This document shows, one piece after another, positions 3,059 to 56,643 of a DNA stretch of 64,000 nt (positions within the stretch are counted from its first letter, which is position 1; each line of letters opens with the position of its first letter). The notes beneath the pieces were generated by a model, which was not told the DNA's origin, made no database searches, and was given only the letters and a program-made list of their open reading frames with translations. Source of the DNA: a virus. Its lineage: Duplodnaviria; Caudoviricetes. The DNA is taken from the IMG/VR virus record IMGVR_UViG_3300017987_005501; one strand, 5' to 3'. A program made the position numbers and the translations under genes.

Positions 3059-3385
3059 TTATTCTAGTATCTGAAAAAAGAACCCTTCGAATTCAGAAAC
3101 CGGTATTTCCAAATCCCCAATTTTAAATACTAATAAATGGCGGTCGTTTCTAACTAATTCGTAGCGCGATTCGGATTGTTGCAACTGAATAGAATGATGT
3201 TTAAAAGCTTTAAATGTTAAAACTCCTTTTTTCTCAATGCGTTTTAGATGGGAATGTACTGCAGCATTTGTTATACTAAACCGTCTTGCTATTTCAGCCT
3301 GTGCCGGAGAGATACCGTTTTTTCTACGGTATTCCTTAATAAAATTAACAATTTCCTTTTGTCTTTTCGTTAAACTTCTTGCCAT
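3059..3385 (-). CDS. LexA-like winged-helix DNA-binding protein lacking the S24 peptidase domain
   Basis: LTKRQKEIVNFIKEYRRKNGISPAQAEIARRF...VHSHLKRIEKKGVL matches the LexA N-terminal domain. The protein is only 108 aa. Confidence 0.8.
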   Translation of the reverse strand: MARSLTKRQKEIVNFIKEYRRKNGISPAQAEIARRFSITNAAVHSHLKRIEKKGVLTFKAFKHHSIQLQQSESRYELVRNDRHLLVFKIGDLEIPVSEFEGFFFQILE

Positions 3386-4091: not shown

Positions 4092-4688
4092 ATGGATAAA
4101 AGATTAGTCCTAGTTGATATAGATAATTATCTAATAAGAAACAGTTTACAACTAAATCAATTTGCGCTTCAAAACCTTTTCAAGATTAAATTCCGGTTGA
4201 ATATTTGGAAGAAAATACAATACGAGGAAACCGATTCTTTTATCTTTCAAAAAATTTGTCAAACCTTTCAGCTAAACCTTTCAACGGAACAGTTATCTAA
4301 TCTAAAAAGAGATTATGTTCTCGAATTATTTAAGCTAATCAAGAATAATCGGAATTCGGCACAACTAGACCCCATCAGCTATAATAATATAAAAGAACTT
4401 CTTGAACAGAAAATTATTATAGGCAGTTTTGCTTCCAGCTTTTTCGATAATATTAGAATGAAGCTTATTCCCCTTAATATATTCCATCATTTCCAATTTG
4501 GGGCTTTCGGAGAAGACGCAACCTCAGTCACACAATTAATTGAAGTTGCAAAAGAAATCTTAAAAATCCAAACAAAAGAAACTTTTTCCGAAACGTACTA
4601 CTTATCTGAAAAAAATTATAAGGTAAAAGATATTCAGTGGCTTAATAATAACACTTTGGGTTCGATTTTACAAAAAAAAGAATTTTGA
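4092..4688 (+). CDS. HAD-superfamily-like protein (degenerate)
   Basis: N-terminal LVLVDIDNYLI (DxD motif I) and FQFGAFGED. The C-terminal motif IV is not evident. Confidence 0.55.
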   Translation: MDKRLVLVDIDNYLIRNSLQLNQFALQNLFKIKFRLNIWKKIQYEETDSFIFQKICQTFQLNLSTEQLSNLKRDYVLELFKLIKNNRNSAQLDPISYNNIKELLEQKIIIGSFASSFFDNIRMKLIPLNIFHHFQFGAFGEDATSVTQLIEVAKEILKIQTKETFSETYYLSEKNYKVKDIQWLNNNTLGSILQKKEF

Positions 4689-5551: not shown

Positions 5552-5583
5552 AAAAAAAACTCAGCTTCGTGCTGGGTTTTTTT
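5552..5583. terminator. Bidirectional intrinsic terminator between convergent SSB and ruvC-like genes
   Basis: AAAAAAAACTCAGC-ttcgt-GCTGGGTTTTTTT: stem-loop with A-run on one side and T-run on the other. Confidence 0.8.
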
Positions 5584-6289
5584 ATCGTTTCCGTTCTTTT
5601 TTTGCCTTTTTAATATCTTTTGATTTGCGGCGGGCCTTAGAATCTGAGAACCGATAAAAATGTTCATACTCTCTATATAGAATACCTTCTTCTCCAACTT
5701 TGGGTTTTCCCGCCTTAATTCCCCTTTTATAATAAGGGCGGGCCGCAAAGGCTTCCTGTTCGACTTTTGTTAAATCTGAAACTTCAACTTTCTGATCATG
5801 TAGATTCCAAAAATTAGAAGCAAAATAAGAGACATGGAAAGCATCAGCAATGTCTCCTTGGATTTTAACACCGTTAATTACGGCTTTTTCTAATCCTAGT
5901 TTTTTCTTCATCGATTTAATCATATCACTTTTCGTAACTTTAGTGTTAGATGAAATTCTAGCGAGTTTTTTAAGTTGCATAGGGGCAAAATAAACGACAT
6001 CTACCTTCTTTTTAAATAACATTGATTTAATAAAAGAATACAAGGCAAACATATTTTCAGATTGGATAGCATGAAAAATGGGAGATTCTGATCCACACCG
6101 AACAATTTTATATTTTTTAATTAAGGCAGCTAGCTTTTTTGCGATTGTTTCATATCTCAAAATCTCAAGCATAGCTTCGCTTGTTTGGATTAACCCAACC
6201 TCGACTACCGACTCTGGTCCTGTTTTTTCATTATCTAAGACGCAAAAGCCAGTATTTGTTAGAGAGGGGTCAATTCCTAATATATGCAT
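5582..6289 (-). CDS. ruvC: RuvC-like Holliday junction resolvase
   Basis: ILGIDPSLTNTGFCV, ESP motif, APMQLKK, TKSDM, DIADAFH: RNase H-fold RuvC acidic residues. Confidence 0.8.
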   Translation of the reverse strand: MHILGIDPSLTNTGFCVLDNEKTGPESVVEVGLIQTSEAMLEILRYETIAKKLAALIKKYKIVRCGSESPIFHAIQSENMFALYSFIKSMLFKKKVDVVYFAPMQLKKLARISSNTKVTKSDMIKSMKKKLGLEKAVINGVKIQGDIADAFHVSYFASNFWNLHDQKVEVSDLTKVEQEAFAARPYYKRGIKAGKPKVGEEGILYREYEHFYRFSDSKARRKSKDIKKAKKERKR

Positions 6290-6361
6290 GCTTCTTCCTT
6301 ATAGGGTTCTTTATATATATTTACAGTTACAAAAGACTTTTCTTGGCACTCTTGTTTCTCC

Positions 6362-6427
6362 CATCTGGAACTTCCTCATGAAATTGACCATCATTACTAT
6401 CTTATTAATGATTTATATTGCTATTAG
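6362..6427. repeat. Left arm of a perfect 66-bp inverted repeat
   Basis: CATCTGGAACTTCC...GCTATTAG is the exact reverse complement of 6812..6877 (checked base by base). Confidence 0.97.
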
Positions 6428-6811
6428 CTAAATCGCTTTATGTAAACATAAAACAAGGAATATATATAAACATATATTCAATTTAAAAATAGGTTTAAAA
6501 ATAAAGGTTAATATGTTAAACTGCTTTTGGGGAATATAGAATGGCTTTAAAGTAAAATAAAAAAGTATTTTAAAATCAGGTTGAGTTTTCAGGATTTAAA
6601 TCTATTTGAACTATTTAAAAAAGATTTTCATCCCCATTGATCCGAAGACTCGCTTGTATAAAGATCTGAAGGTAGCGAAAATTAGGAATTAATATCCTGT
6701 CTAGGTCGTAATGCTCCTAGAATAAAAAAAGGCGCTGTTATACTGCAAGTTTAACTCCTGCTACCCTAAAAATCAACTGGAATAGCTTGCAGGCTACTAC
6801 TACTAATGGCA

Positions 6812-6877
6812 CTAATAGCAATATAAATCATTAATAAGATAGTAATGATGGTCAATTTCATGAGGAAGTTCCAGATG
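6812..6877. repeat. Right arm of a perfect 66-bp inverted repeat
   Basis: CTAATAGC...GGAAGTTCCAGATG is the exact reverse complement of 6362..6427. The spacer is 384 bp. Confidence 0.97.
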
Positions 6878-7044
6878 AAAATAATGGTACTAGCTTGGTT
6901 GAGAAGTTGGTTGAGAACCGCAAGTGGTTGTTTGATCCCAAAAGCATACCCTCAAAAACTTCCCATCTTAGGAATCAAAGCTCCCCTATCTTGTATTAAT
7001 AATTGTTATGTGCCGAAGTCTAAAATCACTTAGGAGACTAAATT

Positions 7045-9687
7045 ATGGCAAAAAAGAAAAAAGAATTGGAATCAGCAACTAGCAAAGCGAAATCAAAGAT
7101 TGCAGGGAAGATTGATGAGGATTACGTAGATCTTTCAGGTAGTTTTCAAAGAAACTACGATGTAATCAATTCTGGGTCAGTTATTATTAATAAAGTAATC
7201 GGATGCGGAGGCATTCCTAGAGGGAGAATTACTGAAATATTCGGCCCGCCTAGCAGTGGAAAGTGTTTGGTAGGGGATTCTCTTCTTTTTACCCCACAGC
7301 AAGGAATTATAAAAATAGAGAAATTATATCATTCTCTAAAGGATAAACCGGGTCCGGATTCAGCAGTGGAATACCAGGAAAAGATTCTTGGAAAGGATGG
7401 TATTAAAACTACCTCACATTTTTATAATGGAGGCGTTAAAAAAACCAAAAAAATTAAATCTAGATATGGTTACGAGGTTGAAGGGACCCGGGTACATCCT
7501 ATTCTTGTAATGGAAAAATCTGGAAAACAGGTTTGGAGAAAATTAAAGGATGTAAAAAAAGGGGACTATATTTGTATTCAGAGAAATCAGCAATGTTTTG
7601 GAAAAGAATATATAAAATTAGATTGGGAATATAAAAAAGAATCCAGATGGGAAACTAGCACCAAGAAATATAAAATTCCTACTTCTATTGATGAGAAGTT
7701 AGCTTCTTTCTTAGCTTATGTTATAGCAGAAGGAACAACAACATATAAAACTTCTATGGGAATTTCACAAAAAGAAACTGAAGTTGCAAATATTATTAAA
7801 AAATTAGCAAAAAGTCTTTTTGGAAAAGAATTGGTTCTAAAAAAAGAATCTCTTAAGGATTATAATTTTAGTTCGAAACAAATTAGGTCCTTTTTATATG
7901 AAGCGTTAGGGGTTAATTATGTTAAATCGAATAAAAAGGAAATTCCAGATCTTATTCTTCAATCCCCCAAATCTGTTCAACAAGCGTTTCTTCGTTCTTA
8001 TTTCGAAGCAGAGGGATCAGTAACAAGCGACTGGGTTGAAATTTCTTCAGCGAGTAAGTGGTTGGTTCACCAATTACAGGTAATGCTTCTTAACCTAGGA
8101 ATTATTGCTAACCAACGAATTATTCATAATTCCGCGACAAACAGTTCAAACCCTGTTGAAAGAGACTACTATAGTCTTTGTTTAACGGGAAATAATATTA
8201 ACATCTTTGCTAAAGAAATTGGTTTTGAATCCACACGGAAGACACAAAAACTCGATTCCTTAGTAAAACAACGTAATTCTTTAATGGAAAGATCTAATGT
8301 CGAATCTATTCCATACCAAAAAGAGTTAGTCCTTGCTTTTAAGGATGAAGTGATTAGCGAGCAAGGGACAGGCCGAGGGGGGAATTTCCCTCGAAAGGGC
8401 TTTAAAAATGTATATGGAAATAATCTCGTTAAAAGATTAGAGGCTATTAAATACCGGGGGGATAATCTATCTTATCTGACCTGGAAAAGAATAAAAGAAC
8501 AAGCTCCAAAGGAACATCAGGAATTAAATTCTTTTTCTAAGATTGAGCGAAATATTGAAAACCAATTCTTTTATGATCTAGTAACAGAAATTACAGAATC
8601 GGAAGCTCAAGTTTATGATTTAACTATTCCAGATGGGCATAATTTTACATCAAATGGAATTATTTCGCATAATACGACACTGGCTACCTCTATCTGTATC
8701 CAAGCACAAAGAGAAGGCCATTCTTGTTTATATCTGGATTACGAACATGCTTTTGATCCTAGTTATGGAAAAGCAATTGGGCTAGACTTAGATCCCAATA
8801 AATTTGCACTGTATCAACCCAACTTTTTAGAAAAAGGTCAAGAACTAATTACAAGAGCACTAGCAACCCATACTCTAGTGAAGTCTACAGGGGCTAAAAA
8901 ACAAATCCCAGATAATGAAAGAGGAATTTGGATTGATCAAAAGAAGGGTATTGGCATTGGGGTCCCAGTAGTTATTATAATTGACTCTGTTGCAGCCTTG
9001 ATTCCAAAGAAGGAATACGAAGGCGAACATGATACAATGGAAATCGGGCTCTTACCTAGATTATTGTCAAGGTATCTAAGAAAGCTCGTAAGCCTTATTA
9101 AAGCTTCCAATTGTGCGATTGTTTTAGTTAATCAAGAAAGAACTAACATTAAAATGGGTCCTTTTGCTGCCGCAGGACCTGATTATGAAACTACTGGCGG
9201 TAAGGCAGTTAAATTTTATGCTAGTGTAAGGCTAAGATTAAAGTTGAAGAAAAAGGAAAAAGCTCGCGTCTTTAATGAGATTCAAGGAACAAAGGAAGAA
9301 CTTCCTATCCAGAATGTTATTAAATGTACAGCTGTTAAAAATAAGGTGGGAATGCCCTATAGAACTGGGGATTTCGTAATCCGCTTTGGGGAAGGGGTTG
9401 ATAATGTCCGTAGCATTGTTGACATTGCTATCAATGCTGGAATTATTAATAAAGGTGGGGCCTGGTTTGATTATAAATCTCTAGTAGATGAGGCCCACAA
9501 TTTTAGGGTTCAGGGAATGGAGAAAGTTCGAGATATCGTAATTGAAAAAGATTACCTTATTGACGAATTACAAGAAAGGCTAGAATCCTATTTTAATCAG
9601 GGCGATAAGAAGGAAACAGCCTCGGACCTAGAAAAAATGGAAGACATTGAATTAATTAGCGAAGAATATGGGGACGATGACGATTAA
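7045..9687 (+). CDS. recA: RecA recombinase with an intein in the P-loop
   Basis: GGIPRGRITEIFGPPSSGK|intein|TTLA, YLDYEHAFDP, IIIDSVAAL, VLVNQER, TTGGKAVKFYASVRL, KNKVGMPYR, AGIINKGGAWF. Confidence 0.95.
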   Translation: MAKKKKELESATSKAKSKIAGKIDEDYVDLSGSFQRNYDVINSGSVIINKVIGCGGIPRGRITEIFGPPSSGKCLVGDSLLFTPQQGIIKIEKLYHSLKDKPGPDSAVEYQEKILGKDGIKTTSHFYNGGVKKTKKIKSRYGYEVEGTRVHPILVMEKSGKQVWRKLKDVKKGDYICIQRNQQCFGKEYIKLDWEYKKESRWETSTKKYKIPTSIDEKLASFLAYVIAEGTTTYKTSMGISQKETEVANIIKKLAKSLFGKELVLKKESLKDYNFSSKQIRSFLYEALGVNYVKSNKKEIPDLILQSPKSVQQAFLRSYFEAEGSVTSDWVEISSASKWLVHQLQVMLLNLGIIANQRIIHNSATNSSNPVERDYYSLCLTGNNINIFAKEIGFESTRKTQKLDSLVKQRNSLMERSNVESIPYQKELVLAFKDEVISEQGTGRGGNFPRKGFKNVYGNNLVKRLEAIKYRGDNLSYLTWKRIKEQAPKEHQELNSFSKIERNIENQFFYDLVTEITESEAQVYDLTIPDGHNFTSNGIISHNTTLATSICIQAQREGHSCLYLDYEHAFDPSYGKAIGLDLDPNKFALYQPNFLEKGQELITRALATHTLVKSTGAKKQIPDNERGIWIDQKKGIGIGVPVVIIIDSVAALIPKKEYEGEHDTMEIGLLPRLLSRYLRKLVSLIKASNCAIVLVNQERTNIKMGPFAAAGPDYETTGGKAVKFYASVRLRLKLKKKEKARVFNEIQGTKEELPIQNVIKCTAVKNKVGMPYRTGDFVIRFGEGVDNVRSIVDIAINAGIINKGGAWFDYKSLVDEAHNFRVQGMEKVRDIVIEKDYLIDELQERLESYFNQGDKKETASDLEKMEDIELISEEYGDDDD
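7264..8673 (+). mobile_element. Intein with LAGLIDADG homing endonuclease in RecA (470 aa)
   Basis: Starts CLVGDS after GK and ends ISHN before Thr. Block B TRVHPILV; LAGLIDADG-like helices FLAYVIAEGT and FLRSYFEAEGSV; block F VYDLTIP. Confidence 0.93.
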
Positions 9688-18827: not shown

Positions 18828-18836
18828 GATTCTTAA

Positions 18837-19157
18837 ATGTACGGATACTACGCAACAAAAAAACCAATTAAAGAAGTAGTCCGGGAATTAGAGAAAGACT
18901 TTAAAGGCCAATATCAAATAACGGCTACGCAGGTCTATGACTGGACAATTAAACACTACCCTTATAATGCATATCTTTTAGCCCCCGAAATAATTGGTTA
19001 CTTTTGGAGGTATGTTAAAAATCATAATATCAATGTTTTAGCTTCCACCAAATCTTCCAGGATTAAGAGTAGTATAATTAATAGACTAAATAAAATTAGT
19101 AAAGTTCTGGAAAGATTAAATGAGCACGCAAGAGAAAATAAAATCATTCATCGATAA
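18837..19157 (+). CDS. Hypothetical protein
   Basis: ORF fills the gap between two genes and overlaps the primase start. Confidence 0.6.
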   Translation: MYGYYATKKPIKEVVRELEKDFKGQYQITATQVYDWTIKHYPYNAYLLAPEIIGYFWRYVKNHNINVLASTKSSRIKSSIINRLNKISKVLERLNEHARENKIIHR

Positions 19158-19896: not shown

Positions 19897-20322
19897 ATGA
19901 CTATTGACGAAGTTTTCGAACTGCTCGGCATTAAAAAAACAAAAAGGATGTTAAAAGAAGCAAGAGATAATATTAAAACCTTAAACGATGACCTTTTTGA
20001 GCTTGAAAAACAGAAAAGGAAGGCAGCGTCTGAATTAAAAGCCAGAGAATTAATTATGAAGAGAGATATAGCGATGGAAATTGAACCAGGAACGCAAAAC
20101 AAGAAAGCTTTTACTAATGATTCATTGCGAGACGCAGAGTTTATTATGAGGTCAGCTGCTGATAAAAATATAGCAGACTTAAGAGATGAGCTCGACCTTT
20201 TAGTTGCAGGTATTTTTCAAAAAAAGATTTCTTTGCAAATTGAAGGGGAAGCTAATAAAGAATTACTTCTTGACTATAAAATGGCGATATCGCTAATTCC
20301 TTATCTGAATACAGAGGACTAG
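19897..20322 (+). CDS. Hypothetical coiled-coil protein
   Basis: Helical 141-aa ORF within the operon. Confidence 0.65.
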   Translation: MTIDEVFELLGIKKTKRMLKEARDNIKTLNDDLFELEKQKRKAASELKARELIMKRDIAMEIEPGTQNKKAFTNDSLRDAEFIMRSAADKNIADLRDELDLLVAGIFQKKISLQIEGEANKELLLDYKMAISLIPYLNTED

Positions 20323-49567: not shown

Positions 49568-51016
49568 ATGGGCTTTACAATGCCCCGGAGGGAAAAGGTC
49601 ATCTGGCCTGATATTCCCAATGGTTATCCGCATCCACCTCGTAACGTTATTATAACATCTCCTTATACCGAGGGAGCTCTCGATATAAGATGGGATAACC
49701 CTGCCCATATTCCAGAGAATGTGGGCACATTCTTTTTAAATATCTTTGGCGTAAATATTTATAGATCAAGGGAAAGTCAATTTGGCCCTTGGGAAAAAAT
49801 TAATGATGCTCCGGTAGGAGCTTTGACCTTTAGAGATGAAACCCAACATCAATTGGTTTTAAATGAAGATGTTACTGGGATGTTTATTTCTAAGGATAAC
49901 CAAACAGATACAGAGAACGACCCGAACCAAACATTAACATTCACTGTAAAAAATCCTCCAATAACCCAACCAAACCCAAGAGCTAACGAAGTAAGCGATT
50001 ATTCCCAAGTAAAAGTAACTTTCACTGATAGTTCCGGGGAGGTCAAGGAGGCCGTTGTTGGTAACATTGATTGGTTGACCGGTAGGATTTCTCTTGTAAC
50101 TAAAGCATACCTTGATGCGATATCCCTAAGAATGGTCGAGCCAAACATTCCTGACCTTAATAACCCGGCAACAAGGGTTTATTGCACATATTATAGATTA
50201 GAAAACTTTGTGGATACAACCTTAGATAGAAGAACCCATTATAAACTAACAACAGTTGCTGAAGATAAAAAAGGCAATTTTGTAGAAACTCCCATCGAGT
50301 ATGCAATTGCAGAAGACTCGCTACAATTTGAAAAACTAGATTATATGTGGAGGGAAGCAACAAGAAGAAATAAATGGATTCTAGAGCAAGGTGGGGAACG
50401 GGTCAAAGTTATGGTCCGAAAATGGATTGGAGAGCCTTGTAAATGTGAAAGTGGGAACCCACATTCAGAAGTAAATAACTTTCCGCGCCATAAATGTAAA
50501 GTTTGTTTTGGGACTGGCGTTATTGGAGGGTATGAGGGGCCGTTCGATCTATTAATTCCCCCTCCAGATACAGAAAGACAAATAAATCCAACCGAAAGAG
50601 GATTGAGATTAATTTATACTTATGAATGTTGGACCGGCCCAACGCCAAGACTTACGGAAAGGGATATTCTAATTAAACCTAATGGAGAAAGATATATTTT
50701 AGGTCCAGTATCCCCTGTAGTTGTTCGCGGAGTGATGATCCAACAAAGTTTTTCTGTCCAATATGTTGAGGTGGACGATATTATTTATAAAGTCCCACTA
50801 GGCGGAAAAATTCAACACCCAGTCGCAAAGAAACAAGAAGACAAACTTAAAGTTTTAGATACTTCCGCAAATCCAGACGCAATTCCAGACCCACAAATAG
50901 GGAAGAAAGCTTTCAGGCCAAGCGAGCTCTCCCCTTATATCTCGGATCATTGTAGAAAACCACCCTCTTTAGAACAAAAGGGTAGGACTAAGACTTGGGA
51001 AAATATTACCTACTAA
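49568..51016 (+). CDS. Probable neck/head-closure virion protein (FN3-like N-terminus, CxC...CxxCxGTG zinc finger)
   Basis: PPRNV...IRWDNP...GVNIYRS...WEKIN; RKWIGEPCKC...CKVCFGTGVIGGYEGP. Confidence 0.55.
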   Translation: MGFTMPRREKVIWPDIPNGYPHPPRNVIITSPYTEGALDIRWDNPAHIPENVGTFFLNIFGVNIYRSRESQFGPWEKINDAPVGALTFRDETQHQLVLNEDVTGMFISKDNQTDTENDPNQTLTFTVKNPPITQPNPRANEVSDYSQVKVTFTDSSGEVKEAVVGNIDWLTGRISLVTKAYLDAISLRMVEPNIPDLNNPATRVYCTYYRLENFVDTTLDRRTHYKLTTVAEDKKGNFVETPIEYAIAEDSLQFEKLDYMWREATRRNKWILEQGGERVKVMVRKWIGEPCKCESGNPHSEVNNFPRHKCKVCFGTGVIGGYEGPFDLLIPPPDTERQINPTERGLRLIYTYECWTGPTPRLTERDILIKPNGERYILGPVSPVVVRGVMIQQSFSVQYVEVDDIIYKVPLGGKIQHPVAKKQEDKLKVLDTSANPDAIPDPQIGKKAFRPSELSPYISDHCRKPPSLEQKGRTKTWENITY

Positions 51017-56601: not shown

Positions 56602-56643
56602 ATTAACATTTTATTACTGTTTAGACAGAAATAATCTGTTAAT
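56602..56643. promoter_or_regulatory. Back-to-back copies of the recurrent motif in the divergent intergenic region
   Basis: AATAAAATGTTAAT on the minus strand (56602-56615) and AATAATCTGTTAAT on the plus strand (56630-56643), each about 50 bp from a start codon. Confidence 0.5.

Follow-up and report, generated by a model that had tools for sequence, protein, structure and literature searches.

Why does a phage genome carry the same 66 bp, exact and in mirror image, ahead of its divergent genes for a Holliday-junction resolvase (ruvC) and a strand-exchange protein (recA)? The question is raised by a 516-bp element, two arms and a spacer, in an uncultured marine jumbo phage of about 283 kb (283.5 kb), of which we analysed one stretch of 64 kb, here called the window. 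A preliminary description of the locus had offered three readings, namely an invertible segment operated by the flanking RecA and RuvC, a cruciform-forming origin, and a duplicated promoter or leader that co-regulates the two recombination genes. The anatomy of the arms fits the last of these best, on sequence grounds only, and we propose that one 66-bp 5' control/leader segment was duplicated in inverted (mirror) orientation to give the element, a tentative reading to which we assign a probability of roughly 0.4. The repeat itself, its reality, copy number and layout, its absence from distant relatives and the break in synteny at its position are all observed outright.

Structure and genomic setting of the repeat

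The repeat lies between the leftward and rightward units of a replication/recombination module, where the two diverge, within a non-coding gap of 755 bp (6290-7044) that is the longest in an otherwise tightly packed window. The main features of the locus are:

5582..6289, minus strand: ruvC, RuvC-like Holliday-junction resolvase gene, 235 aa (Pfam PF02075, E 1.5e-8; phrog_159, E 4.6e-21)
6362..6427: left arm of the exact 66-bp inverted repeat, outward reading (to ruvC) on the minus strand, present as a 2x-depth unitig
6428..6811: spacer, 384 bp, non-coding, strongly asymmetric, left half very AT-rich, right half 32-40% GC
6429..6628: AT-richest 150-200 nt of the 64-kb window, 20% GC
6812..6877: right arm of the exact 66-bp inverted repeat, outward reading (to recA) on the plus strand
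7045..9687, plus strand: recA, 880 aa (Pfam RecA, E 7.5e-50; Intein_splicing; LAGLIDADG_3)

As first described, the two arms (6362-6427 and 6812-6877) are reverse complements of each other without a mismatch over 66 nt (100% complementary) and enclose 384 nt. Identity breaks off sharply at all four edges, and the same 66 bp does stand ahead of both divergent units: its outer end is 73 bp away from the start codon of ruvC (ATG at 6289, minus strand) and 168 bp away from that of recA (ATG at 7045). Two claimed absences also held up. The outer edges (left flank ...TTGTTTCTCC, right flank AAAATAATGG...; ...TTTCTCC / AAAATAA...) have no direct repeat in common and hence no target-site duplication, and searches of the approximately 60 window ORFs, covering 64 of ~283 kb, against Pfam (including Resolvase and Phage_integrase) and PHROGs found no transposase and no serine or tyrosine recombinase. 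There is no third copy of the arm in the 64-kb window (matches of at least 12 nt with a meaningful E-value), and the arm has no match in phages (blastn), viral_contigs, metagenome_contigs or genome_contigs, where a 27-mer and a 40-mer taken from it are likewise absent. The perfect identity of the arms had been read as a sign of ongoing homogenisation. This does not follow, since all the available assemblies differ from one another by only about 1 SNP per 10 kb, and a young duplication explains the identity equally well.

Besides the two flanking genes, the window encodes RecD2, thymidylate kinase, SbcCD-like proteins, a Cas4-like nuclease, a sliding clamp, clamp-loader subunits, a primase, RNR, dUTPase, a 5'-3' exonuclease and a sigma-like protein, and unannotated, probably virion, genes come after the replication/recombination module. 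The recA gene contains a LAGLIDADG intein of roughly 470 aa right after its Walker A motif GPPSSGK (GPPSSGK/C, around residue 74). An intein is also present in the recA of the relative L001 (821 aa; only 56% identical), which indicates that the intein is old in this phage group. A protein of 108 aa encoded at 3059-3385 has a LexA-type DNA-binding domain alone, without the S24 peptidase domain. This LexA-DBD-only protein, whose place beside tmk and recD2 is kept in every relative, is a candidate for the regulation of the recombination genes.

Authenticity and copy number

The element is present in an independent assembly, the 88.8-kb JGI contig L009, which is identical to the window over 10.6 kb bar one SNP and has the same 755-bp gap, repeat, spacer and spacer orientation. 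Logan contigs (k=31) from three public runs of different studies break at the 66-bp arms, in the pattern required of a k=31 de Bruijn graph at a 66-bp inverted repeat: the left-flank contig stops 30 nt inside the arm, and a 444-nt spacer piece shares 30 nt with each arm. In all three runs the arm forms a separate 66-nt unitig at a depth of 21.9-24.4, as against ~10 (9.3-10.7) for the flanks and the spacer. An arm at about twofold and a spacer at onefold depth mean two arm copies and one spacer copy per genome, which rules out a chimera and a multi-copy element alike. In run X5, a low-coverage Logan contig (6311-6527) joins the left flank, the arm and the spacer in the reference orientation. 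We therefore rejected an assembly or amplification chimera, the outcome that the preliminary description had named as fatal to the repeat, on the strength of the identical contig L009, the doubled unitig depth in three runs and the spacer unitig that overlaps both arms. The phage was found in sediment and seawater metagenomes of six studies (2017-2021), and the element is fixed in these samples.

The sole difference between the window and the other assemblies and runs over these 10.6 kb is T>A at 5946, within ruvC. The A variant of RuvC is carried by eight contigs, and the window's own variant has no exact product on record.

Sequence content of the arms

Read outward, each arm comprises 10 nt, TATAAATCATTAAT, an overlapping 23-bp near-palindrome, GAGGAAG, 6 nt, and an ATG that is its last triplet. 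In coordinates, these elements are:

6822..6835, plus strand: TATAAATCATTAAT, with a TATAAAT box, a 12/14 match to the genome's recurrent AATAATYYRTTAAT; mirror copy at 6404-6417, minus strand
6827..6849: near-palindrome of 23 bp, ATCATTAATA-AGA-TAGTAATGAT, 9/10 pairs around a 3-nt centre; mirror copy at 6390-6412
6862..6877, plus strand: SD-like GAGGAAG (6862-6868), 6-nt gap and ATG (6875-6877); mirror copy at 6362-6377, minus strand

Part of this layout speaks for a control cassette. A near-palindrome of such quality has a chance of only about 1% per 66 nt, and it is a candidate operator for a dimeric protein. The spacing from GAGGAAG to ATG is akin to that at the GGAG-type ribosome sites of real window genes, and an arm that ends exactly on an ATG after a box, a palindrome and an SD counts in the same direction, as do the boxes of the TATAAATA type that stand before four other genes, at 21-44 nt. 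Other properties count against it. The preliminary description had noted the 12/14 match of the outward TATAAATCATTAAT to AATAATYYRTTAAT; the match itself is there, its significance is not, as matches of 12/14 quality number 34 in the window against 20.2 expected by chance, which is not significant, and the TATAAATCATTAAT 14-mer is not enriched either (35 matches vs 37 expected, at most three mismatches). A simple sigma-70 scan found no outward sigma-70 promoter or -35 in the arms, the arm hairpin is no more stable than those of shuffled sequences (z +0.2 and -0.1), and ruvC seems to own a proximal TGTAAATAT-type box outside the arm. The arm palindrome has no further site elsewhere in the 64-kb window, so that no regulon is demonstrable. 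Inward, each arm has a weak TTGACC-17-AATGAT (9/12), a class of sites that is scarcer than in shuffles (3 vs 7.7).

The terminal ATGs open two short outward reading frames:

6875..7033, plus strand: 52-codon ORF from the terminal ATG of the right arm, its TAG stop overlapping the recA ribosome site
6311..6364, minus strand: 17-codon ORF from the terminal ATG of the left arm, ending 21 nt before the ruvC ATG

The recA-side frame stops 12 nt before the recA start codon. Both have a codon score like that of non-coding DNA (-0.07 vs 0.33 for genes), have no homologues and were not picked by gene callers, nor is a gene called there in L009; a real gene in this position (the 62/52-aa ORF) was rejected on these grounds. 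The frames would thus be leader ORFs at most, and with non-coding codon usage and no homologues the SD and ATG of the arm could be a coincidence.

Facing inward from each arm is a very hydrophobic small ORF (MKLTIITILLMIYIAIS...), of 31 aa on the right (6766-6861, minus strand) and 17 aa on the left (6379-6431, plus strand). The right copy is without a ribosome site and has a borderline codon score (0.16 on 31 codons). One idea is that MKLTIITILLMIYIAIS... might encode a small membrane peptide or type I toxin.

Sequence content of the spacer

We found no gene in the spacer. An RNA gene in spacer or arms was rejected, as ARAGORN reported no tRNA or tmRNA there, Rfam gave no hit at gathering thresholds (a permissive scan returned only chance-level matches, E 2-4.5, far below gathering scores), and the spacer folds no better than shuffles (z-scores -1.0 and -0.5). 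A hidden gene under another genetic code was likewise rejected: the spacer has no ORF of at least 45 aa under table 11, TAG=Q or table 4, and neither TAG=Q nor table 4 yields a credible one. An extended -10-like box, TGTTATACT, lies at 6735-6743. The cumulative GC skew of the window has its minimum at 6454, in the AT-rich left half of the spacer, and its maximum at 50,792, another strand switch. The sign of the skew tracks the coding strand at every strand switch of the window, turning negative again over the minus-strand genes at 51-56.5 kb. Since the skew follows gene strand, the minimum at 6454 is what any divergent junction would give, and is not independent evidence of an origin.

Comparison with related phages

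The preliminary description had suggested related genomes as a check, and by that check the repeat shows no conservation. RuvC identity to the closest relatives is 49-65%, and all of them lack the repeat; at no more than 65% protein identity, they are too distant to show selection either way. Protein-pattern scans of viral_contigs and metagenome_contigs for closer relatives found none in viral_contigs (single protein), where alignment gave only relatives of 24-46% identity, and none in metagenome_contigs. One side of ruvC is conserved among the relatives, with a 237-aa gene, tmk, the lexA-DBD gene and recD2. On the upstream side the gene order differs in every relative. In L001 a release-factor-like gene, two small genes and an M23 peptidase lie between ruvC and the intein-bearing recA, in L004 and L005 the gene found there is co-directional and encodes about 200-220 aa, and the P0006 contig has another, different divergent gene. 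The repeat thus sits at a recombination/synteny breakpoint and, being absent from relatives with different genes upstream of ruvC, is a lineage-specific feature.

The relatives with a divergent ruvC also have a large gap (483 bp in L001, 474 bp on the P0006 contig), and nothing in these gaps is alignable to that of the window, only low-complexity A/T words being held in common. The gap upstream of ruvC in L001 contains a promoter-like, A/T-rich 27-nt direct repeat (7658-7684 and 7872-7898, 96% identical). A weak resemblance links the 3' half of the arm to the region of ruvC translation initiation in L003, both being aligned in the same register relative to the start codon, with a score reached by 10 of 500 shuffles (p about 0.02 before correction for six targets), and this hints that the arm block derives from a ruvC-type 5' region. 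A parallel exists within the same genome. On contig L007, about 5 kb past the end of the window, two direct-repeat blocks (18832-18914 vs 20150-20257) are 89-97% identical, and each consists of a promoter-like motif, an RBS and first codons placed before one of two unrelated minus-strand genes (221 and 408 aa). Regulatory cassettes are therefore duplicated recurrently in this genome.

Several smaller features were noted in these regions. A second common block on L007 (18156-18206 vs 18913-18963) is 94% identical, and the cassettes there adjoin a LAGLIDADG endonuclease gene. The second 27-nt copy in L001 is flanked by a 10-bp perfect inverted repeat, ATTCCCTATT/AATAGGGAAT. The release-factor-like protein of L001 (6450-7517), situated between ruvC and recA, is of class I (PCRF and RF-1 domains), has no counterpart in the window, and could be linked to stop-codon recoding in the L001 lineage. 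In the window, a 198-aa ORF (4092-4688) 1.7 kb from the repeat belongs to no Pfam or PHROG family, and tblastn with the genes that neighbour this place in the relatives L001, L003 and L004 revealed no counterpart to it; it looks like a lineage-specific insertion.

Alternative explanations

The element may have no selected function as yet, being either a neutral young rearrangement scar or a foldback-type insertion that happened once; a 516-bp stretch bounded by long terminal inverted repeats would have arrived, or formed, in a gap of ~239 bp through illegitimate recombination or a template switch. Such an origin, which we regard as somewhat unlikely, would agree with a lineage-specific element that sits at a synteny breakpoint and is missing from the relatives, and with the size of the gap once the element is subtracted (72+167 = 239 bp), which is ordinary for divergent genes. 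Phage, viral, metagenome and genome collections contain no homologue of any part of the element, and none of its putative signals is statistically firm. An accident does not, however, readily account for arms that finish exactly on an SD and ATG, for 516 useless bases, unusual in a tightly packed genome, that form part of the longest gap in the window, or for an element fixed in the samples of six studies from 2017-2021. Of the marks of a MITE or foldback element, terminal inverted repeats are present, whereas target-site duplication and multiple copies are not, and two arm copies with one spacer copy per genome leave no multi-copy MITE. Replication could also start here, with the AT-rich left half of the spacer as the unwinding element and the arms as initiator sites, or as inward promoters that open or prime it. 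The stretch at 6429-6628 is indeed the AT-richest 150-200 nt of the window and the cumulative skew minimum does fall at 6454, and the origin proposed in the preliminary description draws its support from these two features; as the skew tracks gene orientation throughout the window, it fails as an independent sign. The surroundings are suitable, in a module with clamp, clamp loader, primase, RecD2 and SbcCD-like genes, each arm has its inward TTGACC-17-AATGAT, and divergent-ruvC relatives keep a large gap as well (483 bp in L001, 474 bp on the P0006 contig). Yet the inward promoter matches are at chance level (3 vs 7.7 in shuffles), the relatives' gaps have no sequence in common with this one, no replication initiator gene lies beside the element, and in place of an iteron array there are just two weak two-copy repeats of 12-14 nt (86-92% identity). 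What is found, in 64 of ~283 kb, is an AT-rich candidate unwinding element, and neither an initiator-repeat array nor a strand switch that is independent of genes. At T4 oriF and oriG a promoter and a downstream unwinding element form an R-loop, and in known origins the initiator, itself known, binds contiguous palindromes or arrays of iterons. The element resembles T4 oriF/oriG and the HSV-1 oriL palindrome (between UL29 and UL30) in being AT-rich and easily melted, with dyad symmetry, in a gap between divergent replication genes, but its dyad arms are 384 bp apart, with no iterons and no identified initiator, and we judge an origin unlikely. The cruciform that had been suggested is implausible: by extrusion kinetics it is not expected in duplex DNA with a 384-nt spacer, and in silico the 66-bp stem forms only if the DNA is fully single-stranded.

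Inversion of the spacer is a further possibility, and an improbable one. Recombination between the arms, by the phage RecA and RuvC or by a recombinase encoded elsewhere, would flip the strongly asymmetric spacer and so place the AT-rich (UP-like) half, or the TGTTATACT box at 6735-6743, upstream of the other gene. Homologous recombination needs a minimal homology of about 50 bp in T4 and 25-75 bp in E. coli, and the 66 bp of perfect homology is at or above that length; with the phage's own RecA, RuvC, RecD2 and SbcCD-like proteins, some flipping is to be expected. Classical invertons (fimS, Hin, the Mu G segment) are similar in being bounded by inverted repeats, in having asymmetric content and in that they could change the DNA upstream of flanking genes; their repeats, however, are 9-34 bp long and are read by a dedicated invertase, whereas here the bounding repeats are exact over 66 bp, no recombinase gene was found nearby (about 60 ORFs in the 64-kb window, no serine or tyrosine recombinase) and one orientation has been seen. 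All three independent readings of orientation agree (the window contig, L009 and the X5 Logan contig at 6311-6527), k=31 contigs otherwise breaking at the arms. Moreover, the content of the arms is independent of orientation, so a flip would alter only distal upstream DNA, and the arrangement is not conserved in relatives. In cyanophages, segments bounded by inverted repeats do coexist as two isomers (10.64898/2026.02.14.705889); there, repeats of 400-700 nt enclose 30 kb of genes (10.64898/2026.02.14.705889), as opposed to 384 bp of non-coding DNA here. Least probable of all, in our estimate, is a device operated by recombination itself, in which the repeat would be turned over or processed by the very RecA/RuvC machinery that the adjoining genes encode, to serve either as a self-referential switch of expression or as a recombination-primed origin. 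If it were true, the state of the DNA in the recombinase's control region would depend in turn on how much recombinase is present.

Discussion

We return to the reading that we prefer, an inverted duplication of a single control/leader segment. What we infer is that the arms act as promoter and operator, that the leaders are translated, that the two genes are co-regulated, and how the arms came about. The ruvC and recA units would each be preceded by the same outward-facing box, operator and leader. The 23-bp near-palindrome that overlaps the TATAAAT box would be a likely site for a dimeric regulator or for a phage sigma factor or activator, through which one factor could switch ruvC and recA together, and the leader ORFs that start at the terminal ATGs may be translationally coupled to both genes. 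The arrangement may have arisen by recombination or a template switch, either at regulatory cassettes or between two of them, at a locus whose gene order is plastic in this phage group, and an event that was young, or arms that were recently homogenised, would leave the arms perfectly identical.

The closest known system is that of the PeSL cassettes of T4-type phages, in which a promoter and a stem-loop overlapping it are followed by an SD with a start codon at the 3' end; these cassettes occupy plastic loci and mediate shuffling (PMC2839356). The arms share with the PeSLs of RB49/phi1 the succession of box, overlapping inverted repeat, SD, and start codon at the 3' extremity, and like them are repeated within one large lytic phage genome at loci that vary in gene content among relatives (PMC2839356; PMC4122927). 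Serving as a substrate for homologous recombination is another trait of PeSLs that the arms may be listed as having in common with them (PMC2839356; PMC4122927). The differences are considerable. PeSLs occur as about 50 diverged copies per genome, mostly direct, that flank ORFans, whereas the arms are two, 100% identical, inverted, and face out of a non-coding spacer; PeSLs have consensus sigma-70 promoters and stable G/C-rich terminator hairpins, whereas the arms have no sigma-70 consensus and a hairpin like that of shuffles. Measured against the PeSL plan, the arms thus have the SD and start codon at the 3' end (GAGGAAG-N6-ATG) and the position at a variable locus, lack a stable stem-loop, and on the promoter side have a TATAAAT without a -35, no outward sigma-70 match and a motif match at chance. 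The element is not a PeSL by membership, and is most likely a variant of a known theme, duplicated phage regulatory cassettes.

If the cassette works, this jumbo phage wires its strand-exchange protein and its junction resolvase to one signal by means of a copied promoter-to-start-codon block, and the shuffling of genomes through regulatory cassettes that is known from T4-type phages extends to an unrelated, huge marine phage. Should it prove to be no more than a scar, a genome that is highly recombinogenic would have produced it as an ordinary by-product. The element marks a recombination hot spot beside the recombination genes themselves, and either way it offers a defined and easily assayed target of 516 bp, and several public samples contain the phage.

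Other motifs in the window

Directly outside the right arm, upstream of recA, lies one further repeated motif:

6895..6917, plus strand: tandem pair TTGGTTGAGAA / TTGGTTGAGAA, exact, period 12

This pair is a possible direct-repeat binding site; elsewhere in the window the motif has no exact copy and only two 1-mismatch matches, at chance level. T4-late-like boxes of the TATAAATA type stand 21-44 nt ahead of four other start codons (window 4050, 56665, 58932 and 60815). At 56630 and 60768, a further 35-47 nt upstream of the TATAAATA box, is the motif AATAATCYRTTAAT, and the repeated arrangement of AATAATCYRTTAAT with a downstream TATAAATA box suggests a two-part promoter.
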